Shown here: positions 29,970 to 62,906 of the stretch, one piece after another
How positions within the stretch are numbered: the first letter of the stretch is position 1
Layout of the letters: every line of letters begins with the position of its first letter
Source: a virus
Lineage: Duplodnaviria > Heunggongvirae > Uroviricota > Caudoviricetes
Virus record (IMG/VR): IMGVR_UViG_3300008114_000011
DNA length: 64,000 nt
Direction: 5' to 3' (one strand)
Translations under genes and position numbers: made by a program
The notes under the pieces: generated by a model
What the model was told of the DNA's origin: nothing
Database searches by the model: none
What the model saw: only the letters and a program-made list of their open reading frames with translations

Positions 29970-30770
29970 ATGAAAAAGACAAATTATTACGAAATTTGTA
30001 ATCAAAAATTGAAGTATTTAAACTATTCAGATAGGACTATCAAGTCCTATCTTTATTATATTAATCAATTTTTAGAAAATACTAAAATACCACCAACCAG
30101 ATTAACAGCAACAGATTTCCAACAATATCTCAATAATTACAATTTTACCTCCACCTCACAACAAAATCAAGTCATAAACTCAATAAGATTCCTATACAAA
30201 GAATCACTTAATAAAAAATATGATAAGGTTGATTTTAAAAGACCTAGATCTGAAAAGAAACTACCAAAAGTAATTGATGGCGATTATATCAAATCTAAAC
30301 TTTCTAAAATAGAAAACCTTAAGCATAAAACTATACTTACTTTAACCTATTCAGTTGGTTTAAGAGTTTCCGAAATAATAAATCTTAAAATAGAAGATAT
30401 TGACTCCAAAAGAATGATTATTCATATTAAAAATGCTAAAGGTAAAAAAGATAGAATTGTACCACTTTCAGAAAACGTACAAAATCTAATAAAAATATAT
30501 TCAGAAAAATATACACCAAAAGAATATCTTTTTAATGGTCAATCCACAAACAAATATTCAATACAATCCTGTCAAAATATCTATAAAAAATATATTGATG
30601 AAAATTCATCTATACATACCCTCAGACACTCAGCCTTTACCAACCTCTTAGAAAATGGAACAGATCTAAGAATAATACAGAAAATAGCAGGTCACTCATC
30701 CACCAAAACAACAGAGATATATACACACGTTTCTAATCAACTTTTAAATAAAGTTAATCTACCAATTTAA
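29970..30770 (+). CDS. tyrosine recombinase, IntI/XerC/XerD-like (short, 266 aa)
   Basis: N-terminal SAM-like pattern LKYLNYSDRTIKSYLYYINQF; GLRVSEIINLK; AKGKKDRIVPLS; HTLRHSAFTNLLENGTDLRIIQKIAGHSSTKTTEIYTHV (R..HxxR..Y catalytic pattern). Confidence 0.85.
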   Translation: MKKTNYYEICNQKLKYLNYSDRTIKSYLYYINQFLENTKIPPTRLTATDFQQYLNNYNFTSTSQQNQVINSIRFLYKESLNKKYDKVDFKRPRSEKKLPKVIDGDYIKSKLSKIENLKHKTILTLTYSVGLRVSEIINLKIEDIDSKRMIIHIKNAKGKKDRIVPLSENVQNLIKIYSEKYTPKEYLFNGQSTNKYSIQSCQNIYKKYIDENSSIHTLRHSAFTNLLENGTDLRIIQKIAGHSSTKTTEIYTHVSNQLLNKVNLPI

Positions 30771-37590: not shown

Positions 37591-38272
37591 ATGAGTTAAT
37601 CATATAACTTGCTAAGTTTTTCCAAGTATCTGGGTAACAACATCTGATTTTTGAAATCATAATTAATGTTCTCATATTCAACTCACACTTATCTTTGTTA
37701 AGATCTAAGAAGTTTAATGCTTCTTCTTTTACTTTAATGTCATAGTCTGGTAAGATATTTGGTAGGATAAATTTCATACGTTGTATCTTTTCAGATGGAG
37801 TCATTGACAAGTCAACAGTTAAAGATCTTGATAAAACTGCTTGATCAATACTAGACTTATTTTTATTTGAAATAAAGATGATATTACCTGTAAACTTAAA
37901 TTGTTGTGGGTATTCATCACTCTTATTCATTTTAGCCATCCAAGAAATTTCACGAGTATCATAAGAGTCAAGTGCTGACTTTAAGATATTAACAGCAACT
38001 CTATCATCTAGTACTGAGTCACAATCGTCAAAAATAATCAACTTACCATTGTTATCGTAAAGAGTATTATAAAGACCTCTTGCTGTTGAGTAACCTTTAA
38101 AGAAAACATAATCATCTGGTTGTAAACCACTCTCATTAATAGATTCTTTAACTGTATGAGTTTTACCTAAACCACCTTCACCAGTTACTAAGATAGAAGG
38201 AGTTATACCAGCTACTACCATTGAGGTTAAGTCTTGTAAGAAATTAAATTTTTGATTGATGTCGTATACCAT
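37589..38272 (-). CDS. P-loop AAA-type ATPase
   Basis: Walker A VTGEGGLGKTHTV; Walker B-like KLIIFDDCDSVLDD. Confidence 0.75.
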   Translation of the reverse strand: MVYDINQKFNFLQDLTSMVVAGITPSILVTGEGGLGKTHTVKESINESGLQPDDYVFFKGYSTARGLYNTLYDNNGKLIIFDDCDSVLDDRVAVNILKSALDSYDTREISWMAKMNKSDEYPQQFKFTGNIIFISNKNKSSIDQAVLSRSLTVDLSMTPSEKIQRMKFILPNILPDYDIKVKEEALNFLDLNKDKCELNMRTLIMISKIRCCYPDTWKNLASYMINS

Positions 38273-46404: not shown

Positions 46405-47193
46405 ATGGGAAAACATTATTTATATAAACATATAAGAAATGATAGTAATATCATTTTCTATATTGGTATAGGGACAAAAAATAAATCTGATATAACTTAT
46501 AATAAGTATAGTAGGGCTTTTAATAAAAAAAGGAGAAATAAACATTGGTTAAATACAGTTTCTTTATTGAATGATGATTATTCAATTGAGATAGTATGTG
46601 AGACCGATGATTATGAATATGTGAAAAGTCTAGAAAAAAATCTGATTTTATTTTATGGTAGAAAGGATCTAGGTTTAGGTAATTTAGTAAATATGACAGA
46701 TGGTGGTGATGGTCAAATAAAAAGAGTTTGGAGTGAAGAGTCTAGGAAGAAGGCATCTAAATCACACATTGGTAAAGTAATTGATGGTGAGTGGAAGAAA
46801 AATTTAATAAAAGCTAGATTTGGAAATAAATCACATTCTGGTCGAACTTTTTCAGATGAACATAGAAAAAAAATATCAGAAGCAGGTAAGGGAAAAATAC
46901 CTTGGAATAAGAATAGAGAATTATCCAATGATGAGATTGAAAAAATAAAAAAGGGTATAGAAGAAAATAAAAAAATTTGTTATATTTGTAATGTTGAGTG
47001 TGACTCTGCTAATTATAATAGATGGCATGGTGATAAATGTGAGATGGGATCTATTTTAGATAGGGTTGATGAGATAAAGGATTTATTGTATAATAAAGTT
47101 CCTTTACTTAGGATTAGTAGAGTTTTAGGAATAAAGTATAAATTATTGAGAAGATTAAAAGAGTCAGTTTTATTTAAAGAAGAATTATTATGA
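46405..47193 (+). CDS. GIY-YIG homing endonuclease with NUMOD3-like repeats
   Basis: HYLYKHIRNDSNIIFYIGIGT (GIY...YIG); repeats SEESRKKASKSHIGK and SDEHRKKISEAGKGK. Confidence 0.75.
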   Translation: MGKHYLYKHIRNDSNIIFYIGIGTKNKSDITYNKYSRAFNKKRRNKHWLNTVSLLNDDYSIEIVCETDDYEYVKSLEKNLILFYGRKDLGLGNLVNMTDGGDGQIKRVWSEESRKKASKSHIGKVIDGEWKKNLIKARFGNKSHSGRTFSDEHRKKISEAGKGKIPWNKNRELSNDEIEKIKKGIEENKKICYICNVECDSANYNRWHGDKCEMGSILDRVDEIKDLLYNKVPLLRISRVLGIKYKLLRRLKESVLFKEELL

Positions 47194-47963
47194 AATATTT
47201 AAAAAAGAAATATCCGGATGGTAGCTTTTATGTTGAAGTAGAGGATTTTAGTGAACCTATAATAACCGAAAGAATAAATTCATATGAGGACCTTTTTTTC
47301 ATAAAATCCATCAAAGAGGTTTGTGATTTTAATGGAATTAAAGATGTTGAGTTATTTATACCATGTATGTTTCAACAGCAACATGACCGTAGATTTTTTG
47401 ATAATCAATCATTTGAACTAAAGATAGTTTGTGACTTTATCAACTCATGTAATTTTAGTAAAGTTTATGTTTTCCATCCACATTCTGATTCCACTCAAAT
47501 GGGATTGAATAATATTAGAGTTGTTGATAATTCTAAATTTATATCAAGTGTTTTAAGTAGAATTGATTCTAATCCAATATTATTTTCAACAGATGCTGGT
47601 TCATTTAAATGGATAAATAAATTAGTTGATAAAATAGGATTTAATGGTGATGTTTATTGTGCTAGTAAGTCTAGAGATTTAAAAACACATGATTTGAAGC
47701 AAGTTATTGATTGTTCTGATTTTGGTGGTAGAGATATATTAGTATTGGATGATTTATGTGTAAAGGGTGGTACATTTATAGGTCTATTGAATATGTTAAA
47801 GGAGAGAAATGTTGGTAAGATATACTTAGCAGTTAGTCATATGACTATTCAAGATCCAAATACAAGTCTTGAGTGTTATGATAAGATATTTACTACTAAT
47901 AGTAAGTATGACTATTATGTTCTAAATAATTTAGAATTGATTGATTATAAAAGTATTATATAA
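47190..47963 (+). CDS. prs: ribose-phosphate pyrophosphokinase (PRPP synthetase)-like protein
   Basis: LFIPCMFQQQHDRRF resembles the Prs xPYxxYxRQDR block; PRPP-binding loop DILVLDDLCVKGGTF. Confidence 0.6.
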   Translation: MKYLKKKYPDGSFYVEVEDFSEPIITERINSYEDLFFIKSIKEVCDFNGIKDVELFIPCMFQQQHDRRFFDNQSFELKIVCDFINSCNFSKVYVFHPHSDSTQMGLNNIRVVDNSKFISSVLSRIDSNPILFSTDAGSFKWINKLVDKIGFNGDVYCASKSRDLKTHDLKQVIDCSDFGGRDILVLDDLCVKGGTFIGLLNMLKERNVGKIYLAVSHMTIQDPNTSLECYDKIFTTNSKYDYYVLNNLELIDYKSII

Positions 47964-48826: not shown

Positions 48827-48871
48827 AGGTAATAGGTTCTTATATATATAAGTATAAAAGAAGTGATACTT

Positions 48872-49846
48872 ATGTTAGAAGAATTTATAAAAAAATCGAT
48901 AGTTAAATTTGGTAATAAATTTGATTATAGTAAGTTTAATTATGTGAATGCTAAAACTAAATCTATAATCATATGCCCAGTACATAAAGATTTTTTTCAA
49001 ACACCTGATAAGCATTTACGTTCAAAATATGGATGTAAATTATGTTGGGAAATTGAAAAAAAGAAAATAAAAAGAGATTATGTAAAGGGTCCAAATATCA
49101 TTTCAAAAGATGAGTTCTTGGGTAGATGTTATGAGAAGTTTGGTGATAAATTCAAATACGATTTATCAAACTACAATGGGTTTGTTGGTGATTATATAAA
49201 AATAACTTGTTCAGAACATGGTGATTTTTATACAAAACCGAATATACATTTATTAAGTAATAACACCTATGGGTGTAAATTATGTGCTAATGATAATAGA
49301 GTACTCAATAAAACACAAACCTATGATGATGTTATAGAAAAATTATCAAATATTTATAATGATAAATATATTTATCCTGAATATAATAGAGATACTTATA
49401 TTAACAAGAGGTCGAAAATAGATATAATTTGTCCGGATCATGGGCTATTTGTTAAGAGTGTTCAAAAACACCAAAGCGGTCAATATTGTTTTGAGTGTAA
49501 AATTAAGAATATGGTTTTTAATAATATTTTAGTTGGTGGTTACACTGAGAAATTATTTGAAGATAAACCAGAATTAAAGGATAAAAAATCTAAATTATAT
49601 TATTTGAGAATAAATAATGGTGATTATTATAAAATAGGAATAACAACAGTTTCGGTTGAAAGTAGAATAAAGTCATTGAAGAGTAAATCTAAAGGTTTTA
49701 TAAAAGATGTTGAGATTTTATTTGAAAAGGAAATGTCTTTATATGAATCATATATCATGGAGAGTAAAATATTAAATGATAATATAGATAGTAGAGTTTA
49801 TAAAAAATGGAGTACTGAAATTTTCAACAAAAATGTTTTGGAATAA
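48872..49846 (+). CDS. homing-endonuclease-like protein (repeated Cys modules plus T5orf172/GIY-YIG-like C-terminal domain)
   Basis: Three repeats of FG.KF.Y....Y......I.C..HG.F......HL....GC..C; C-term LYYLRINNGDYYKIGITTVSVESRIKSLKS. Confidence 0.55.
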   Translation: MLEEFIKKSIVKFGNKFDYSKFNYVNAKTKSIIICPVHKDFFQTPDKHLRSKYGCKLCWEIEKKKIKRDYVKGPNIISKDEFLGRCYEKFGDKFKYDLSNYNGFVGDYIKITCSEHGDFYTKPNIHLLSNNTYGCKLCANDNRVLNKTQTYDDVIEKLSNIYNDKYIYPEYNRDTYINKRSKIDIICPDHGLFVKSVQKHQSGQYCFECKIKNMVFNNILVGGYTEKLFEDKPELKDKKSKLYYLRINNGDYYKIGITTVSVESRIKSLKSKSKGFIKDVEILFEKEMSLYESYIMESKILNDNIDSRVYKKWSTEIFNKNVLE

Positions 49847-49881: not shown

Positions 49882-51462
49882 ATGAACTTTTTAGAAATTT
49901 ATTATACCGATGTGTATAAAACAGGACACAAACCAATGCTACCAGTGGGTAGTGTTTTGATGCAATCAAATTTTACACCAAGGAGTGGTAAATATAGCAA
50001 TTGTCCAAATAATGGTAAAATTGTTTCGTTTGGTCAACAAATGATGGTGAGAAAAATGAAACAAGATTGGGATGTTAACTTTTTTCAAAGACCAATTGAA
50101 GAAATCGATCAATTTGGGAAGGATTTAACAGATATGTTAATGCTGAGTGATCCTTTTGATGTTACTCACTTCAAAGAACTACATAAATTGGGATATCTTC
50201 CGATTGAGTTTAGAGCAATCACTGAAGGTGAGAGAATTCCGTATAAAATACCATTATCGACTATCGTTAATACTAAACCTTTAAATGGTCAAGTTTTTGA
50301 CTGGATAGTTAATTACTTAGAAACTATTAATTCTGCTGAATCTTGGCAAGCACCAACTTCAGCGACGCTATCATTCGCATTAAGAGAGTTATCAACAAAG
50401 TGGATCACAAAAACAGATCCGGAGAGTTTGTGGTTTGTTGACTATCAAAATCATGATTTCTCAATGAGAGGTATGGGTGGTAAATCAGCTATTGTTAATA
50501 GTGGTTTAGGATTTGCTACTTGTTCGAGAGGTTCAGATACACTACCTGTTATACCAGCTGCTAGAATGTATTATGATGAAAAAGATGTTTGTATCAACTC
50601 TGTTATCGCATCTGAACATGCTATTATGTGTTCATTGACTGGATTTTTCATTAAGACTAAAGATGGTTCTTGGGATAAGGTTGGTAACTTTGAAGTTGAG
50701 ACATTTAGGTATTTATTAAGAACTTTTCCAACTGGAATATTGTCATTAGTATCTGATACTTGGGATTTATGGAGAGTTATTACGGAGTACTGTCAAATAT
50801 TAAAAGATGAAATTTTAGCAAGAGATGGCAAACTTGTTATCCGTCCTGACTCTGGTGATCCAGTAGATATTATTTGTGGTAGCATAACTCCAGATATGTC
50901 TTCTTATAATGAAAGATACAAACAACCTCAATATAAAGGTGTTATCGAGTTATTATGGGATATCTTTGGTGGTACTGAAACATCAACCGGATATAAAAAA
51001 TTAGACTCACACATTGGTGCTATCTATGGTGACTCTATTAACTATAAGAGAGCTGAGAGTATTTATGAAAGATTATCAGCTAAAGGATTTGCAACAACAA
51101 ACATCGTTCTCGGTGTGGGATCCTATTCACTTCAGATGGTAACACGCGATACACATGGTATGGCTCAAAAAGCAACCTACATCGAAATTGAAGTTGATGG
51201 TGATGTTGAAGGTATCAACATCTTTAAAGACCCTATCACTGATGATGGTACTAAAAAATCAGCAACTGGATTACTAAAAGTAGTTAAAGTTGATGGTGAG
51301 TTTACATTAATTGATAAATGTACTTGGGATGATGTTAACTCGGAAGATAATGAGCTGAAAGTTATCTTCAAAGATGGTAAGTTCTATAACGAAACGACTT
51401 TGACCATCATACGTGGGAAGTTAGAGGATCTTGTTTCTAAAGAACAACCTGAATTAGTTTAA
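49882..51462 (+). CDS. nadV: nicotinamide phosphoribosyltransferase (NAMPT/NadV)
   Basis: 526 aa; N-term YYTDVYKTGHKPM; length and blocks SDTWDLW, IRPDSGDP, GAIYGDSI fit NAMPT. Confidence 0.8.
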   Translation: MNFLEIYYTDVYKTGHKPMLPVGSVLMQSNFTPRSGKYSNCPNNGKIVSFGQQMMVRKMKQDWDVNFFQRPIEEIDQFGKDLTDMLMLSDPFDVTHFKELHKLGYLPIEFRAITEGERIPYKIPLSTIVNTKPLNGQVFDWIVNYLETINSAESWQAPTSATLSFALRELSTKWITKTDPESLWFVDYQNHDFSMRGMGGKSAIVNSGLGFATCSRGSDTLPVIPAARMYYDEKDVCINSVIASEHAIMCSLTGFFIKTKDGSWDKVGNFEVETFRYLLRTFPTGILSLVSDTWDLWRVITEYCQILKDEILARDGKLVIRPDSGDPVDIICGSITPDMSSYNERYKQPQYKGVIELLWDIFGGTETSTGYKKLDSHIGAIYGDSINYKRAESIYERLSAKGFATTNIVLGVGSYSLQMVTRDTHGMAQKATYIEIEVDGDVEGINIFKDPITDDGTKKSATGLLKVVKVDGEFTLIDKCTWDDVNSEDNELKVIFKDGKFYNETTLTIIRGKLEDLVSKEQPELV

Positions 51463-53753: not shown

Positions 53754-54587
53754 ATGGAAAAGGGATATATTTATAAAATAATTTCACCAACTAACAGGAT
53801 TTATATTGGTAAAACTTTTAATTTGGAAAAGAGAGTAAGATCTTATAAAGGTTTATGGTGTAAAAAACAAAGAGTTTTGTATAAATCATTAGTTAAATAT
53901 GGTTGGGATAAACATAGTTTTGAGATACTATTTGAAGATTTTTGTAGTGAGGAATATTTATCTGAGTTGGAGACAAAGTATATAATTGAATATAATAGTT
54001 TTCGAAGATACAACTATAAATTTGGAATGAATTTAACTCTTGGTGGTGAAGGATCTTGTGGATTAAAACATACGGATAAAACTAAAAAAATGATATCCGA
54101 AACTAAGAAAAAGGCTAAAAGAACGGAGAAAGAGATTTTAGCAAGTGAAAAAAGAAGAGGGACTAAGGTTTATAAAAGTGAAGAGTGGATTAAAAATAAC
54201 GCAGAGAGTATAAAAAAACCAATATTGCAATATGATTTGGATGGTAATTTTATCAAAGAATGGAAAAGTGCTAAAGATATTGAATTGGAATTGGGATTTT
54301 CTAGGAAAAACATTTCCTGTAATGTTAGATATAAAAGTAATAGTGCATTTAACTTTATATGGATTTTTAAAAATGCCGATCTTAAAATAGATGATATTCT
54401 AATAAGGAGAAAAAGAGAAAGAAAAAAACCAACTAATAGTATTAAGGTTTTAGATATTGAATGTAATATTGTCTATGATAGTATAATGGATGTAGTTAAA
54501 AATACTAACATGACATATGCTAAAGTTTATCGAGTTATATACAGTAATGATGAGAATAAAAAGTATATTATATATGAAGAGAAATAA
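53754..54587 (+). CDS. GIY-YIG homing endonuclease
   Basis: GYIYKIISPTNRIYIGKTFNLEKRVRSY; NUMOD-like HTDKTKKMISETKKKA. Confidence 0.8.
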   Translation: MEKGYIYKIISPTNRIYIGKTFNLEKRVRSYKGLWCKKQRVLYKSLVKYGWDKHSFEILFEDFCSEEYLSELETKYIIEYNSFRRYNYKFGMNLTLGGEGSCGLKHTDKTKKMISETKKKAKRTEKEILASEKRRGTKVYKSEEWIKNNAESIKKPILQYDLDGNFIKEWKSAKDIELELGFSRKNISCNVRYKSNSAFNFIWIFKNADLKIDDILIRRKRERKKPTNSIKVLDIECNIVYDSIMDVVKNTNMTYAKVYRVIYSNDENKKYIIYEEK

Positions 54588-56024: not shown

Positions 56025-57749
56025 ATGAAAAGAATATTATTTTTACTAACACTATTATTATCATTTAGTTCATTAGCAACTAATTATTATATTAGTTCAA
56101 CCGGAAACAATACAAACAATGGAACATCATCTATTACACCAAAATTAACATTAGCAAACGTTTTCAGCACCTATAATTTAGGTTCTAATGATACTATTTT
56201 CGTTGAAGCAGGAACTTATTCTGAGACAGGTATTACTGTTGGTACTGATGATGAAGGTTTTGTAATTTCTGGTGCGGCTTTATCATCTGGTGTACCTACA
56301 TCTATTTTTGATGCAGGTAGTACCGCAAGATGGTTATTGTTAAATAACACAAATAATGATAATATCACAATCACTAAATTAATTATAAAGGATCATAAAA
56401 ATTCTGATGGAGGTGATCCAGGAGGTGGTGGAGCAATTAAAATAATTGCTGGATGTACAGGATTTAAAGCAACTTATTGTCAGTTTGATAATTGTGATAC
56501 AAGAACTGCCTCTTTACATCACCGAGGTGGTGTTATTTATTCTGCTGAGGGAATAACCATCGATTATTGTACTTTCAAAAATTGTAATGCTGAATATTAT
56601 GGTGGTGCTATTTCAATAGAATTATCACCAACATCATCATCATCAATAAAACATTCAATTTTTTATTCAAATACCGCTACTAATTACGGAGGTGCTATAT
56701 TCTTTGGTGTTGGATCTACCTCTACTCTAACATTAGAAAACTGTTTATTTTATGAAAATAATACATCATCAGGAGAGGCTGTTATTGTTGCTATGAATAC
56801 ATATAGTACATTAAATATTATGAACTGTACTATAACTGCTAATGGTAATGCTTCTGTTGGAACTGGAGGTGTTTTGGCTTTATCATCAGCTAAAATAAAT
56901 TTAATAAATACAATTATTTATAATAATTTAGGTAATACTTTCAATGATGTTTATAATAATGCCGCTACCGTTAACATGACAAATTGTTGTTATGGAAATT
57001 CAGCTGAGATAAAATCAGCTACATCAAATACATCACCGTTAATATCAAATCCACTATTCACAAATAGTGCTAGTGATGATTATACACTTTCTGGTACATC
57101 ACCTTGTATAGATTGGGGAACAACAACCGGAGCACCAACTGATGATTTGAGACATTATAGTCGTATTGGTAATCCAGATGTTGGATGTTATGAATCAAAT
57201 GGTATTGCTTTACCAATTGAGTTGATTTACTTTAAAGTTAAATTTGAAGATGGTGTTGTTAAATTAAGATGGTCAACAGCATCAGAACACAATAATGATT
57301 ATTTCACAATTGAAAAGTCAAAAGATGGTTTAGATTATGATATAGTTACAACTCTACCAGGTGCTGGTAATTCAACTCAAAGAATAAACTATCAAGCAAT
57401 TGATCGAAATATTGAAACTGGAATAACTTACTATCGATTAAAACAAACTGATTATAATGGTGATTATAAAAGAACAGATTGGGAGTCTATATTAATTCAA
57501 TTAAATATTGAGAACTTAACGGTTTATCCAAATCCAATTACAAATGAAATAAATGTTTCTTTACATTCATCTTTTAGTAAGGTTGAAGACTTATTGATAT
57601 ATGATTTAACCGGTAAACAATTTTATAAAAAATCATTAGATTTACAATTAGGTGATAATTATTTTGATGTAGAGTTACCACAACTTTCTAAAGGTCTTTA
57701 CATACTACAAATAGGTGATAAGAAACTTAAACTTGAATATAATGATTAA
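56025..57749 (+). CDS. secreted beta-helix-like protein with T9SS C-terminal sorting domain
   Basis: Signal peptide MKRILFLLTLLLSFSSLA. Repetitive G/N/T-rich segments (GGAI.I, YGGAIS, YGGAIFF). C-term LTVYPNPITNEINVSL...DLTGKQFYKKSL...LSKGLYILQIGDKKLKLEY is typical of the Por/T9SS CTD. Confidence 0.75.
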   Translation: MKRILFLLTLLLSFSSLATNYYISSTGNNTNNGTSSITPKLTLANVFSTYNLGSNDTIFVEAGTYSETGITVGTDDEGFVISGAALSSGVPTSIFDAGSTARWLLLNNTNNDNITITKLIIKDHKNSDGGDPGGGGAIKIIAGCTGFKATYCQFDNCDTRTASLHHRGGVIYSAEGITIDYCTFKNCNAEYYGGAISIELSPTSSSSIKHSIFYSNTATNYGGAIFFGVGSTSTLTLENCLFYENNTSSGEAVIVAMNTYSTLNIMNCTITANGNASVGTGGVLALSSAKINLINTIIYNNLGNTFNDVYNNAATVNMTNCCYGNSAEIKSATSNTSPLISNPLFTNSASDDYTLSGTSPCIDWGTTTGAPTDDLRHYSRIGNPDVGCYESNGIALPIELIYFKVKFEDGVVKLRWSTASEHNNDYFTIEKSKDGLDYDIVTTLPGAGNSTQRINYQAIDRNIETGITYYRLKQTDYNGDYKRTDWESILIQLNIENLTVYPNPITNEINVSLHSSFSKVEDLLIYDLTGKQFYKKSLDLQLGDNYFDVELPQLSKGLYILQIGDKKLKLEYND

Positions 57750-58476
57750 ACAAAAATTAGACGAATACTTAGAGTTTGATTCATCTTTGTTATTTGGTGA
57801 TGATACTTTCATCACTAATGAATTAAAAGATCGTGGAATAATTTATAATAAGTTAGTTAGAGTTTTTGGTGGAGCTTTAAGAGATATTATAGCCGGTCAA
57901 AAAATCAATGATGTGGATATATTAATTGGTACTAAATCAATGAATTTTGTTGATAAAGTATTAGTTGAGAATGGATATATTTATCATGAAAATTTAGCAC
58001 CTAAAGATCTATCATCTGTTTATGATATGAATATGGTTATATCTGAACCCTATTCTTATGTTAAAGGAACTAAAGTGGTTCAACTTATAAGACCAAGAGT
58101 TATGTCTGTTGAAAGACCATCCGATGTTACTCAAGATTTATACACGCAAACGTTTATTGATTTGATTGCTAATGTTGATATTAGTTGTTGTGGTATATCT
58201 TATGATGGTAAAAACTTATATCAAAACTATCCAGGTGCTATTTCACATGCTAAACATAGAAAGTTTCTTGTAAATAACTTAGCTAAAATGTATAATCAAA
58301 AAAGAATTAGTTCTAGAAGATGGAAGCTGATAAATAGAGGTTGGGAAGAGTTGAATGGAGTTGCTGATTATAGAGATTTTAAAATAGATGCTATTTTTGA
58401 TATCGAAAATTTTGAATATATAGATGAATCAAAAACCATAAATAAAAAGAAGAATAAAGAGTTCGATTTGTGGTAA
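57742..58476 (+). CDS. nucleotidyltransferase of the CCA-adding/poly(A) polymerase family (head domain)
   Basis: VRVFGGALRDIIAGQKINDVDILIG matches the GGxVRDxLLG..x.DxD motif; ATG 57742 overlaps upstream stop. Confidence 0.65.
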   Translation: MIKQKLDEYLEFDSSLLFGDDTFITNELKDRGIIYNKLVRVFGGALRDIIAGQKINDVDILIGTKSMNFVDKVLVENGYIYHENLAPKDLSSVYDMNMVISEPYSYVKGTKVVQLIRPRVMSVERPSDVTQDLYTQTFIDLIANVDISCCGISYDGKNLYQNYPGAISHAKHRKFLVNNLAKMYNQKRISSRRWKLINRGWEELNGVADYRDFKIDAIFDIENFEYIDESKTINKKKNKEFDLW

Positions 58477-58499
58477 TAAAAATAAAAAATAAAAAATAA

Positions 58500-59033
58500 A
58501 TGAGAAAACCCTTTAAGAGAGTAGAACCAAAAAGAAAACACAAAATTAATTTAGAAATAACATCAAGTGATGTTAGATTGATTGGTAATGGAGAACCAAT
58601 CGTTATTTCTAGAAATGAAGCTATTAGAATGGCTGAAGCAGAGGAAAAAGATTTGATTATGATTAATGAAAATCAAACTCCACCTATTGTTAGAATTGAG
58701 GACTACAACAAATTTCTTTATAATCAAGAAAAGATTGAGAAAGAGAAAAAGAAAAATGCTGTTAAATCCTCTTTAAAAGAAATACAATTATCGGTTAATA
58801 TATCAGATCATGATTTAGAAACTAAATCTAAAAAAGGTAGAGAGTTTTTAAGTGACGGTGATAAAGTAAAAGTTGTTATCTCTTTAAAAGGTAGAGAGAA
58901 AGCATCTCCAGAAAGAGGTGAGTTAGTTATGTTAAAATTTGCTCAATCCGTTGAAGAGTTTGGTACACCAGAGGCACTTCCTAAATTAGAATCCGGAAAG
59001 TGGTTAATGATTTTGAAATGTAAAAAGAAATAA
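58500..59033 (+). CDS. infC: translation initiation factor IF-3
   Basis: INLEITSSDVRLIGNGEPIVISRNEAIRMAEAEEKDLIMINENQTPPIVRIEDYNKFLY...KEIQLSVNISDHDLETKSKKGREFLSDGDKVKVVISLKGRE follows the two-domain IF-3 pattern. Confidence 0.85.
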   Translation: MRKPFKRVEPKRKHKINLEITSSDVRLIGNGEPIVISRNEAIRMAEAEEKDLIMINENQTPPIVRIEDYNKFLYNQEKIEKEKKKNAVKSSLKEIQLSVNISDHDLETKSKKGREFLSDGDKVKVVISLKGREKASPERGELVMLKFAQSVEEFGTPEALPKLESGKWLMILKCKKK

Positions 59034-59136
59034 CTATCTTCACTTTATGAAGAAAACCATTCTAATATTAGGATTTTTTTTAGGAGCTATTGCCGGTATG
59101 ATAGCTTATAAATTAGAAAAACTATTCAAATGAGTA

Positions 59137-61158
59137 TTAAACCCATTTATCATTTTTTCTTTTAAGAAGTTTATCTCCTTCTAATTTATAAAACTTATAT
59201 TTTTTATCAATAGAAGTTATAACATAATATTTATCTGGTCCTAATTCCTTATATCTTTTCATATTACCAGTTACCTTAACACCATCCACTTCACCACCCA
59301 TTTGTTTGGCATAAGCCCATTTAATATAGTGTGGATCAACGTGTCTCGATCTTAATTTATCTTGTTCAATTGATGTTTCTAATGTAGATAATAAGTGAAT
59401 AAAAACTATTTCATATCCATTCTCTCTTGCTAAATCAAATATATCCTTAATGTGTTCATAACCAGTATCAGTATATTCTTTACCAGCACCGGTTGTATCA
59501 TAGATAAAGTTTTGACCAGTTTTCATAAAACCTTTCATCTTCATTAAGTTTAATTCAGACGCATTTTTTGTTCTACCACCTTCTTCTTTTTCTTTTCCTT
59601 TATAATAAACATTTGGATCTTTTGTGTAAAGAAGTGAAATATCATCAGTTGAGAAGTCTTTAATGTTTGTATTTTTTGTATGTAAATAATTATTCACAAA
59701 GTGTGAATTATGTAGTATTGTTGGTAAGTTACCACCTATGAAGTTATGATGTTTATCTAAGACTATATCATAAACATAATCATTATGTTCTATTGTTGAT
59801 ATATTAGTTATTTTATCAAAAAATAAGTTATTGTGATGATTAATATATGTTTCTGGTATATAAACATTATTCTCATTTAAAAAATTACATATTTTATTAA
59901 AACGTTTTTTCGTTATTACTCTTCTATATTTATAACTTCTAGTAAATCTATATCCAGTTTCATCTTCTGGTATAAATTCGGTAATAAAAAATAAAAAAAC
60001 AAATTTAAATAATAAGGATTTTTTATCATATATAGTCAGGGTAACAAGTGATGATTTTAATTTATTTGGAGAAATATTAAATAAATATATTAGATGTAGT
60101 AGAAAAAAAATTAAACCAATTGAAAAAACTAATACAAATATTGGTGGATTTATACCAAATGATGACATGGTGGAATTAATTTATAATAATAAATTAAACA
60201 TTAAAAGTGCATAAGATAAATCAGTAGCCATTTCATATGACGATGTGTAATATTCAACTCTATTTTCAAATACAGAACCATCACAAGATAAATAACTACC
60301 TAAGAAATGTTTTAATGATTCACTGTTTGATATTATATCATCCGGAATTCTAACTTTATGTGATTTGTTGCCAAAAATATAATCACCACATATTTCAGAA
60401 ATATTTGAAATAAAATCATATTTATCTTTTTTAAATCTTCGATTTCCTAATTTAATATCATCTGAATATTGAACACTATGTCTTATTTTTTTAGATTTTA
60501 CTGTTAATATTTTATTTTCTTTTTCGACACATTTTCTAAAATCATCTATTATATCAATATCTATATTTGTTAGTGTTAGAAATTTACTATTTTTATTTTT
60601 TATAAAATTACCATCACTTAACGAATAACCAATAATCCTTGATAATTCATTACTTATTTTTGATTTATTATTAAAAGTGTTATTTATTATTCTAGGTCTG
60701 GCTAACTTATCATCTATTGTTATTTCTGATGATTTTTTCCAAATAATATCACCGTTTTTTTCTAAAACTAATAATGGGTGTATAGGTGTAACTTTTATAT
60801 CAACACCCGTTTGTGTTTTTATATTTATTAACTTTTCTGAATAGCCTCTATATAAACTCGAAATCTCATTTTCCACAAACTCACCACTATCATTTAATGA
60901 TTTAACATATAAGTTTTTAACAGGAATATTTATTTCACCAATTTTTGATTCGGTGTTATAGTTATCTATCAATTTACCAATTTTAGTCATTTTATTATTC
61001 ACTAAAATGGGTGTATTATATTCTAAGCACTTTCCAATACCGGGAGCACCGATTAGGAAAACAGCTAATCCTTTTTCTTTATCTAATATTTCTGGAATTG
61101 GTTCATTCTTTGACCATTCTTCTTTTATGTAATTGAAAAATTCTTTTATATATCTCAT
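59137..61158 (-). pseudogene. intein-containing P-loop kinase, reading frame broken by one in-frame TAA (60181..60183)
   Basis: ORFs 60181..61158 and 59137..60168 are in the same frame. N-extein ends GAPGIGK. C-extein starts SHFVNNYL...IYDTTGAGKE (zeta/AAA_33-like kinase pattern). Confidence 0.6.
59707..61029 (-). mobile_element. class 1 intein with LAGLIDADG homing-endonuclease domain
   Basis: Block A CLEYNTPILV directly after the P-loop Lys. Block B VTPIHPLLV. LAGLIDADG motifs IIGYSLSDGNF and FLGSYLSCDGSV. Blocks F/G YVYDIVLDKHHNFIGGNLPTILHN|S. Confidence 0.8.
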
Positions 61159-62276
61159 ACTAATCTATTTATTTTAGTTTCAATTCCTTTTCTTTTCAAA
61201 AAGATGTGACCATCTCCACAAACATCACAGATTCCATTGTAACTTGAGAAACATTCACCATCACATTCATAACATTGATCATCACCACCATCCGTTTCAT
61301 GTAACCAATTACAATTCTTAGATGGTAAGTTTGATAACTTTTTACCTTTTAAGAAACAAAGTGTATCAATGAATGGATATTTATTGAAGTTTGATTTTTC
61401 TAATTTGACAGATATTTCGCCAAAAAATTCCTTATTATCATATAAAAAACAAACATTTGTTTCCGTATGACTATTCATTTTCTGTTTATATAAAAATTTA
61501 TTCTCATTAGCAAAATTTTTAAACTTTATAACATCAGAATCATTATTTACATAAACTCTATCCATAAAATATTTAGCATCACAAGGTGACTTTTTTAGTT
61601 TCCAAACTAAAGCTCGACCACAAATTTGATCAGTTTCTTTATTGTGTAGAATTAAAAGACCAACTTTATTATCATTCTCCACATATAGTTTTAATTTACC
61701 CCTAGCATCACCCATACAAGATCCTCCTAAAGTCCCATTAGTGTTTAAGTAATTAGATGTGTTATAATATTTGATAATATCATCACCTTTAACAATTTTA
61801 AACTGCCATTTATCATTTATTTCTAATGATTTATATGCGTTCACAAAGTCTTCAACATCTTTATCGGTTAAATTAAAATTAATAGATTTTGAACTTTGTA
61901 TCATAGACACAATAGATCTCAAAACTCTACCAATTTTCATTTCAGATCTCCCTAATGTGTATGGCAAATCTGGATCTTCATCATTATCCCAATCTTTAGG
62001 AACTTTATCATTCATAGTGAAACTAACCATATCAACTCGATTGGTAGTATCAAAAAAGTTTTGAGTTATTGAATCATCTTTTAATTGATGAAATGGATCT
62101 GCTTTTCTATTTAAGAATTCATCAATGATTTTAGAAATATCACCCACTCTACCAGATTGTCTAGATAATTCGGAAATCTTTCTATGAAATTCGGATGTCG
62201 AATATAAATACCCCTCTAATAAGATGACTAAATCATTATTTAATTTTTCTAAAATAAATTGGTTATACTTTCTCAT
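61155..62276 (-). CDS. paralog of 51948..53663 with a single short Cys cluster
   Basis: Shared blocks GDDIIKYY, LGGSCMGDA, VGLLILH, ICGRALVWKL, FMDRVYVNN, YPFIDTLCF, ETDGGDDQCYECDGEC. Confidence 0.7.
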   Translation of the reverse strand: MRKYNQFILEKLNNDLVILLEGYLYSTSEFHRKISELSRQSGRVGDISKIIDEFLNRKADPFHQLKDDSITQNFFDTTNRVDMVSFTMNDKVPKDWDNDEDPDLPYTLGRSEMKIGRVLRSIVSMIQSSKSINFNLTDKDVEDFVNAYKSLEINDKWQFKIVKGDDIIKYYNTSNYLNTNGTLGGSCMGDARGKLKLYVENDNKVGLLILHNKETDQICGRALVWKLKKSPCDAKYFMDRVYVNNDSDVIKFKNFANENKFLYKQKMNSHTETNVCFLYDNKEFFGEISVKLEKSNFNKYPFIDTLCFLKGKKLSNLPSKNCNWLHETDGGDDQCYECDGECFSSYNGICDVCGDGHIFLKRKGIETKINRLV

Positions 62277-62294
62277 TTCTTATATATTTAATCT

Positions 62295-62906
62295 TTATCT
62301 TTTAATTCTTTTAATAGCACCTTTTATAACAGATTTATGATCAAATGCCATATCAACAATAGTTTCACCACTATAACTAACATCAATCCAATCACATTCA
62401 TCAGCATCATCAGCCGCGGATGTTTCAGGTATATCACTTAAAATAACTGAGAAAGCATAAGAAATACAATTCTTATTTCTTGGATCTCTCCACGGTTCAT
62501 TGAATACATCAATAAATCTCAAATATCTTTTAGGTACTTTTAAACTTGTTTCTTCTTCCAACTCACGAATAGCAGCATCTATTGGTTCTTCACCTTCGTC
62601 AATGTTCCCACCAGGACAAGCCCACTTGCCTTTAAATGGATCTTTATTTCTTAGAATTGCCAACATCTTATAATTTGAGCCAGTATCAACTAAAATAACT
62701 AAATCGACACAAGACATACCCGTATCAACTATCATATCACCATTCAATCTAAAAACATATGTATAACCTTTCTTTATTTGATTTATAGAATTATTTACAA
62801 AATTTCCAGAAGTTGTATAAACTTTACGATCTTTTATATCTAGAACCTTAACAGGTCCAAACCAATCACTCGAATTAAATTGGTTATAAGTTTTAATTTT
62901 TAACAT
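62295..62906 (-). CDS. Nudix hydrolase with MKYLK-like head
   Basis: Nudix box GGNIDEGEEPIDAAIRELEEETSL; N-term MLKIKTYNQFNSS. Confidence 0.8.
   Translation of the reverse strand: MLKIKTYNQFNSSDWFGPVKVLDIKDRKVYTTSGNFVNNSINQIKKGYTYVFRLNGDMIVDTGMSCVDLVILVDTGSNYKMLAILRNKDPFKGKWACPGGNIDEGEEPIDAAIRELEEETSLKVPKRYLRFIDVFNEPWRDPRNKNCISYAFSVILSDIPETSAADDADECDWIDVSYSGETIVDMAFDHKSVIKGAIKRIKR

Follow-up and report, generated by a model that had tools for sequence, protein, structure and literature searches.

Several archaeal inteins of the VMA, RadA and CDC21 types sit in the P-loop motifs of ATPases, and the present locus is compared with them here. It lies in a stretch of 64,000 nucleotides (nt) from a Caudoviricetes phage (IMG/VR record IMGVR_UViG_3300008114_000011), referred to here at its full length as the window, where the minus strand at 59137-61158 encodes a predicted P-loop kinase with a LAGLIDADG intein inserted in its Walker A motif. 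Almost certainly, this intein has been broken by an inversion of 227 bp inside its endonuclease domain. The closest solved inteins by sequence are archaeal VMA inteins (7qss, 2.3e-20; 7qsu; 7qst), RadA (Pho, 2lqm) and CDC21. Like the inteins of archaeal V-ATPase A (VMA), the phage intein is class-1, with Cys1 and a terminal HN, and the 7qss, 7qsu and 7qst chains match its endonuclease region as well. The solved VMA and RadA inteins are, in contrast, contiguous and reside in other host proteins, while the intein of the window resides in a phage kinase of AAA_33 or zeta-toxin-like character and has 76 of its endonuclease codons inverted.

Broken inteins are also known. The split DnaE intein of cyanobacteria probably originated when a rearrangement of the genome interrupted a formerly contiguous intein where its endonuclease lay; its halves are far apart, compact, charge-complementary and conserved in cyanobacteria, none of which is true of the window locus. 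In the fractured genes of a phage-like metagenome (Dassa et al. 2009, PMC2677866), adjacent open reading frames (ORFs) each encode half of an extein and half of an intein, and the break falls at the endonuclease region, as it does here. There, however, a free-standing GIY-YIG or Vsr-like endonuclease gene lies between compact halves, whereas the window locus has an inversion within an in-frame LAGLIDADG domain, bulky remnants and junk on each of the halves, and ORFs only 12 nt apart.

Decay of the endonuclease by an internal stop has been proposed as a route to split inteins in a recent preprint (bioRxiv 10.1101/2025.01.02.630785), an actinophage survey that also names phage Zeenon as having a split intein, without giving the origin of the latter. 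The locus shares with this route, as outlined there, a stop in the homing endonuclease region that divides an intein-bearing phage gene into two ORFs, and differs from it in that the cause is a 227-bp inversion and not a point or indel mutation. The same preprint cites inteins that contain a whole LAGLIDADG endonuclease ORF in antisense (Gorbalenya 1998, as cited in bioRxiv 10.1101/2025.01.02.630785), so that endonuclease coding runs opposite to the strand of intein and exteins, as in the window. As cited, those ORFs are whole and possibly active and the intein frame is open, whereas in the window locus only an internal fragment of 76 codons, without a start codon, is antisense and the intein frame is closed. 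The intragenic invertons of Bacteroides (PMC10028968), finally, are short within-gene inversions that create a premature stop and two ORFs, likely in the same host phylum, but the inverted segment of the window has no significant flanking inverted repeats and occurs in one orientation across all assemblies. As a LAGLIDADG intein in a P-loop, and as an intein that is decaying or split, the locus belongs to known kinds, and it is the cause of the breakage that is uncommon.

The intein and the inverted segment

The gene is read as two minus-strand ORFs in one frame, 60181..61158 (325 amino acids) and 59137..60168 (343 amino acids), whose sole separator is the TAA at 60181-60183. The joined translation is ...VFLIGAPGIGK/CLEYNTPILV...NLPTILHN/SHFVNNYL..., with slashes at the borders between intein and exteins, and a class-1 LAGLIDADG intein is confirmed at the exact boundary of Lys and Ser in the Walker A motif of the predicted kinase. 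The motif GxxGxGK[ST] arises, as GAPGIGK/S, only once the intein is removed. Two intein-free orthologues of 232 amino acids, P0010 and P0011, match 100% of the length of the spliced extein, with 91% and 88% identity; at the insertion site P0010 reads GAPGIGKSFFVNNYL, and both read GAPGIGKSFFVNNY. From their uninterrupted reading it follows that the intein separates the Lys of Walker A precisely from its Ser. The residues needed for splicing are invariant in the alignment with the homologues described below (A1), among them H483, N484 and the Ser+1 (S485) that follows ...TILHN, and Pfam matches both Intein_splicing (5.5e-22 to 6.2e-22) and LAGLIDADG_3 (6.5e-16 to 6.7e-16) to the intein when the inverted segment is flipped back. 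The features are collected in Table 1.

Much of this had been claimed in a first-pass annotation of the window, and the ORF list with its translations, the intein-free comparison, the feature coordinates, A1 and the Pfam matches uphold what it said of the shared frame, of the insertion directly after the Walker A lysine, of the presence of all splicing blocks and both LAGLIDADG motifs, and of a stop within the endonuclease region. The C-extein homology that it expected of orthologues is present, the spliced extein being the 91% match to P0010. Where it went astray is in taking the lesion to be a single in-frame TAA, and the sequence around that stop to be endonuclease.

To see this, consider how the frame continues past ...SYALLMF. 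Over 76 codons (59968-60195) the minus strand reads as hydrophobic junk, namely NLLL, the stop, and then INSTMSSFGINPP...ITEFIP, also written INSTMSSFGINPPIFVLVFSIGLIFF...ITEFIP, and this reading has, as it stands, no similarity to anything. The opposite strand is open throughout the same stretch and reads GINSVIKNKKTNLNNKDFLSYIVRVTSDDFNLFGEILNKYIRCSRKKIKPIEKTNTNIGGFIPNDDMVELIYNNKL. Its translation (plus strand, 59969-60196) aligns by BLASTP without gaps to residues 320-395 of the intein-bearing homologue P0002 with 63% identity (E=6e-23), and stop-free antisense windows of 76 codons make up only 1.1% of those in the long ORFs of the window. A search with the flipped intein across 5.8 billion protein clusters returns eight intact full-length homologues (P0002-P0009, 589-692 amino acids), 35-59% identical to the intein query at 100% query coverage. 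When 59969-60195 is flipped, the result is a precursor of 673 amino acids that is colinear from end to end with all eight and keeps every invariant splicing residue of A1. The match to the 82 positions of LAGLIDADG_3 grows at the same time from 41 bits, covering 5 to 47-48, to 58.8 bits, covering 5-80, and 7qss, an archaeal intein of V-ATPase A, can be aligned over both of the repaired junctions.

The TAA is one codon of a 227-bp inverted segment, and neither a point mutation nor a sequencing error. Both LAGLIDADG helices of a double-motif homing endonuclease are present with their acidic residues, and in the sequence as it is no complete second half-domain follows the second motif in frame. 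The contiguous ORF through extein, intein and extein that cis-splicing requires is missing, since the TAA stands inside the inversion. The first-pass annotation would have abandoned its reading had a sense codon been found at 60181-60183; with 76 codons inverted, such a codon would not restore the endonuclease, so that this check fails as a refutation. Because a small inversion underlies the stop, an inspection of read pile-ups at one codon would have been the wrong test. A gene of its own on the plus strand, nested in the intein, was considered and rejected, as no ATG, GTG or TTG start there yields an ORF of at least 30 amino acids.

Table 1. Parts of the interrupted kinase gene, with positions in the window
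Feature	Position	Strand	Description
N-extein	61030..61158	-	43 codons, MRYIK...GAPGIGK, ending at the Walker A Lys; colinear with intein-free P0010 and P0011
Intein	59707..61029	-	441 codons from Cys1 to His-Asn; internal LAGLIDADG endonuclease domain interrupted by the inversion; identified by Pfam, A1 and PDB 7qss
Splicing block A	61000..61029	-	CLEYNTPILV with the Cys1 nucleophile; C44 invariant in A1
Splicing block B	60763..60807	-	GVDIKVTPIHPLLVL; TPIH, a T-x-x-H motif; T124 and H127 invariant in A1
LAGLIDADG motif 1	60604..60645	-	LSRIIGYSLSDGNF, containing LSDGNF
LAGLIDADG motif 2	60271..60315	-	LKHFLGSYLSCDGSV, containing SCDGSV; the Pfam LAGLIDADG_3 match begins here
Inverted segment, 227 bp	59969..60195	+	Plus strand is ancestral endonuclease, GINSVIKNKK...GGFIPNDDMVELIYNNKL; minus strand is junk with a stop
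TAA closing the N-terminal ORF	60181..60183	-	Produced by antisense reading of ancestral codons ...TAT AAT AAT...
ATG, 12 nt past the TAA	60166..60168	-	Sole in-frame ATG, GTG or TTG from the stop to the C-extein
Splicing blocks F and G	59707..59832	-	NNLFFDK...YVYDIVLDKHHNFIGGNLPTILHN, ending His-Asn; H483 and N484 invariant in A1
C-extein	59137..59706	-	189 codons and stop; first residue Ser+1 is the Walker A Ser
Imperfect inverted repeat I1	59960..59986, partner 60139-60165		27 nt, 78% complementary; from GIN and FIP codons; not coincident with the breakpoints

Breakpoints, occurrence and relatives

The upstream junction LLMF/GINS agrees with the homologues without any indel, which, if the event was purely an inversion, places the two breakpoints at 59969 and 60195. 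The pair 59968/60196 is equivalent, because the flanking bases are complementary and leave an ambiguity of 1 nt. The present junctions are ATGTTT/AATTTATTATTATAAATT and CGAATTTATACC/AGAAGATG, and the ancestral ones ATGTTT/GGTATAAATTCGG and AATAATAAATT/AGAAGATG, the second of which is also written AATAATAAATT/AGAAGATGAAAC. At the downstream junction, NNKL/EDETGY, four residues found in seven of the eight homologues are missing from the window gene, and this shortfall could stem from a small deletion that accompanied the inversion or from an indel unconnected with it. Because an inversion preserves length, the shared frame of the two ORFs is a trivial consequence.

Many length-compatible flips reopen the frame, as a scan of alternatives shows, and only the flip of 59969-60195 (equal to 59968-60196) gives LLMF/GINS without an indel relative to the homologues. 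The complementarity at the breakpoints is 1 nt. The best repeat that straddles them matches at 16/22 nt with a perfect core of 8 nt, in a scan of 801 bp that contains 126 inverted-repeat pairs (counted without a shuffle control), and perfect repeats near the breakpoints do not exceed 8-9 nt. Two flips between repeat arms were translated by hand and rejected: the one between the arms of I1 keeps the TAA, the one between the 8-nt TATAAATT arms gives a new stop, and in neither does the reading GINSVIK appear as the homologues require. Since the breakpoint complementarity is so short, the segment is not flanked by I1, the better of the repeats, and the flips between repeat arms fail, we infer a one-off illegitimate event in A+T-rich DNA, through either two breaks and their rejoining or a switch of template, and not site-specific recombination.

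Both ORF proteins are found exactly on at least 16 contigs, whose sources include NCBI metagenome assemblies (GCA_031545005.1, GCA_031544975.1, GCA_031546785.1), JGI assemblies (3300021575, 3300008264) and Logan assemblies of SRR7182497, SRR9659502 and SRR28428242. Eight loci from these three sources were read, and their DNA is 100% identical to the window over the gene, with the segment inverted in all eight; the flanks differ from the window by 3 single-nucleotide polymorphisms (SNPs) and one indel of about 195 bp, and no contig ends at the inversion breakpoints. The search of 5.8 billion protein clusters contains no un-inverted allele closer than 59% identity, and a megablast of 58400-62400 against GenBank phages gives no match. 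Exact-pattern scans for the ancestral and the present junctions find neither in IMG/VR, and two scans of JGI metagenome contigs are likewise empty; the junction pattern matches the window and all eight loci and is hence valid, and the scanned IMG/VR and JGI collections, being without this phage, are therefore silent on the un-inverted form. The sampled population is near-clonal, from which follows that it has no power to test selection since the inversion. The sole structural difference among the compared loci is in locus L002 (JGI 3300021575), which is without the approximately 195 bp at window 56364-56558, inside the ORF 56025-57749 (+); the protein of this ORF, with a sorting domain of the type IX secretion system (T9SS), has 574 amino acids in the window and is called as ORFs of 398 and 121 amino acids in L002.

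The extein is predicted to be a phage P-loop kinase, AAA_33 or zeta-toxin-like. Once spliced, it scores 24.2 with AAA_33 (cut-off 27) and 21.7 with Zeta_toxin (cut-off 22.3), which are weak matches just below the gathering score, and many of its homologues have precomputed matches to PF13671 or PF06414; by sequence, no relative of the extein was found in the PDB. The kinase has more than 150 homologues. Between the extein and that of intein-free P0010, the nonsynonymous and synonymous divergences are dN=0.053 and dS=0.70, giving dN/dS=0.076, and with P0011 as outgroup 9 replacements fall on the window lineage against 11, that is, without excess. Since exteins and splicing blocks show no decay and dN/dS is this low, either the inversion would be very young in relation to the divergence from P0010, or the gene would still be under selection and the inversion tolerated. 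Read in the ancestral direction, the inverted segment is conserved to the same degree as the remaining intein (63% versus 60% to P0002), which speaks for a recent inversion.

Within the family, the similarities of extein and intein are discordant. The closest intein-bearing extein is that of P0005 (L012), with 74% identity in the extein but 47% in the intein, while the closest inteins are those of P0002 (L016) and P0003, with 60% in the intein and 51% in the extein, and because the two similarities disagree, transfer of the intein between kinase alleles is suggested. The homologue P0009, with 589 amino acids and an intact frame, is without about 60 endonuclease residues (A1 columns about 195-275 and 353-359) and looks like a decaying endonuclease within the same intein family.

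A near-identical strain appears to be without the intein. The 90% cluster of the C-terminal ORF holds a product of 186 amino acids (P0133/P0138) that is identical to the window C-extein at 184/186 positions, and the 2524-nt contig of this strain (JGI 3300059473 = GCA_041442895.1) has the same neighbours as the window locus. By gene coordinates alone, ORFs of 46 and 186 amino acids span 698 nt on it, intein-free. The allele appears to be 1 nt short of an intact gene of 699 nt, with a -1 frameshift before codon 47, near the homing site at codons 43-44, and this frameshift may be an error; a protein search for the 46-residue ORF returned only contig-end fragments of other intein alleles. The two differing residues (in the window, T57 and K80) follow the insertion site at distances of 13 and 36 codons and might reflect co-conversion. 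The comparison shows an apparent presence/absence polymorphism of the intein between nearly identical strains, which fits a recent gain of the intein and a recent inversion. As this strain appears to carry a split intein-free allele, there is also a weak hint that the kinase may be dispensable.

Fate of the broken gene

It is rather probable that the locus is a recently inactivated kinase gene with a dead and immobile intein, i.e., a young pseudogene. In this lineage, a single illegitimate inversion of 59969-60195 has flipped the second half of the endonuclease core, which turns 76 endonuclease codons into antisense junk and introduces the TAA. Translation then ends once the N-extein, the N-terminal splicing lobe and some two thirds of the endonuclease have been made, a contiguous precursor for cis-splicing is no longer possible, and the kinase is most likely not produced any more. 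The pseudogene would have become fixed in a near-clonal and widely sampled phage population and would be too young for further damage. Without its second DNA-binding half the endonuclease should be dead, and the intein therefore unable to home. For the C-terminal half, the ATG at 60166-60168 is the only candidate start, because no other in-frame ATG, GTG or TTG precedes the C-extein, and a product begun there would have a junk leader of 67 residues that includes the membrane-like IFVLVFSIGLIFFLLHLIY (Kyte-Doolittle 2.68). The charge complementarity of natural split inteins is absent (IntN +1, IntC -3).

Several points weigh against loss of the gene. Apart from the inversion, 2 kb of DNA with 27% G+C is undamaged, with exteins, splicing blocks and both LAGLIDADG motifs in place, and this fits continued selection equally well as recency. 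The kinase family is widespread and strongly constrained (dN/dS about 0.08), so that its loss might be costly. The ATG lies 12 nt past the stop, and the genome does without Shine-Dalgarno motifs, which makes translation of the C-terminal half possible, and the break is at the canonical position for split inteins. With 3 SNPs over all compared flanks, the near-clonal sample leaves selection since the inversion unmeasurable.

These points bear on an alternative that we regard as doubtful though possible, namely that translation extends to both ORFs, with coupling or re-initiation at ATG 60166-60168 for the second, and that the halves associate, trans-splice and rebuild the kinase. The N-terminal half would then consist of the N-extein, blocks A and B and an endonuclease remnant, and the C-terminal half of the junk leader, the endonuclease tail, blocks F and G and the C-extein; the gene would stay functional in spite of its destroyed endonuclease. 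Two ORFs, each with a part of the extein and a part of the intein and broken at the endonuclease insertion region, are what is found, and with a single exception the break of every natural split intein known falls in this region (PMC2677866). An endonuclease stop is, moreover, an accepted route in the literature (bioRxiv 10.1101/2025.01.02.630785). The two ORFs jointly cover the Pfam Intein_splicing model (2-115 by the N-terminal ORF, 100-155 by the C-terminal one), the catalytic residues are all intact, the exteins show no relaxed constraint, the ATG is close to the stop among genes without Shine-Dalgarno motifs, and the phage in which the arrangement is fixed is a successful and widely sampled one. 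Adaptation to split life, on the other hand, is not seen. Both halves carry large endonuclease remnants and are neither compact nor charge-complementary, and the C-terminal half is headed by the junk leader with its membrane-like stretch. Large LAGLIDADG inteins that have been split artificially, such as Sce VMA, Psp Pol and PI-PfuI, usually need refolding or forced proximity for trans-splicing. Retention across diverged lineages is lacking as well: the broken form belongs to one near-clonal population, and all eight diverged intein-bearing homologues are contiguous.

Far less can be said for a reversible intragenic inverton, in which a recombinase would flip the 227-bp segment and thereby switch kinase and intein between a contiguous (on) and a prematurely stopped (off) state; we consider this very improbable. 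Bacteroides offers examples of inversions within genes that yield a premature stop and two ORFs (PMC10028968), the host is likely a member of the Bacteroidota (T9SS sorting domain, TAnnTTTG-type promoters), and the window contains a tyrosine recombinase gene at 29970-30770. However, the breakpoints fixed by the homologues have only the 1 nt of complementarity described above, the best straddling repeat is one imperfect pair among the 126 of the scan, and I1, although the better repeat, lies elsewhere than at the two ends of the segment. All eight loci have the inverted orientation, the protein search is without an un-inverted product, and the contigs are unbroken at the segment, so that neither the flanking inverted repeats nor, at the level of assemblies, the two orientations within populations by which invertons are recognised are found. 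The recombinase itself, a tyrosine recombinase or integrase of 266 amino acids on the plus strand (PHROG 1, 2.4e-40), is linked by nothing to the inverted segment.

That the true intein is contiguous, and that stop and inversion come from the assembler or from amplification chimeras, is hardly credible. Inversion chimeras are known from multiple-displacement amplification, but here the same DNA recurs in eight loci, which come out of three pipelines and several samples unrelated to one another, and the perfect repeats near the breakpoints are probably too short to confuse a de Bruijn assembler. Of the options offered by the first-pass annotation, recent pseudogenisation and a split product are live, while a sequencing error is excluded by the at least 16 contigs and the eight identical loci. 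Recoding of the stop, which it had already thought unlikely, is dismissed, as TAA ends 44/57 of the ORFs of at least 120 amino acids in the window and read-through would still give 76 junk residues.

Genomic setting and significance

A recurring upstream motif, ...TTATTATATTTGTTATAAAA..., with the TAnnTTTG of the Bacteroidota -7 promoter box, precedes the ORF starts at 1534, 13063, 18700 and 39153 (+) and at 38272 (-), and no Shine-Dalgarno motifs stand ahead of the long ORFs in the window. Together with the Por_Secre_tail (T9SS sorting) domain, these features suggest a host among the Bacteroidota. The 30 nt before the starts at 2724, 3300 and 45408 (+) are near-identical (tagagaagaaaaaytaaatsaatta...), which suggests repeated gene ends or a repeated intergenic element.

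The convergent neighbour of the kinase is a full-length homologue of translation initiation factor IF-3 (IF3_N and IF3_C; 58500-59033, +), in a phage-like context, and a hydrophobic plus-strand ORF of 28 amino acids in L002 (4814-4900) maps between IF-3 and the kinase, at about 59047-59133 in the window. The region is rich in mobile endonucleases: homing endonuclease genes that stand free (PHROG homing endonuclease, HNH, GIY-YIG) are scattered among the members of an NAD-salvage-like set, namely the genes of ribose-phosphate pyrophosphokinase, NAPRTase and Nudix (46405-47193, 48863-49846, 53754-54587; 47190-47963, 49882-51462, 62295-62906).

At the Walker A site of this kinase family, full, decaying (P0009), broken (window locus) and empty alleles make up a compact natural series of the homing cycle. 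If the halves of the broken allele do not splice, the locus is an ordinary young pseudogene, and the two ORFs are to be annotated as one disrupted gene. If they do splice, it would be a split intein at birth, a natural intermediate for the long-proposed rearrangement route from contiguous to split inteins, and a large LAGLIDADG intein would be seen to trans-splice spontaneously in spite of its endonuclease remnants. The locus would then be a rare snapshot of the origin of a split intein and would provide a candidate for a new trans-splicing pair.

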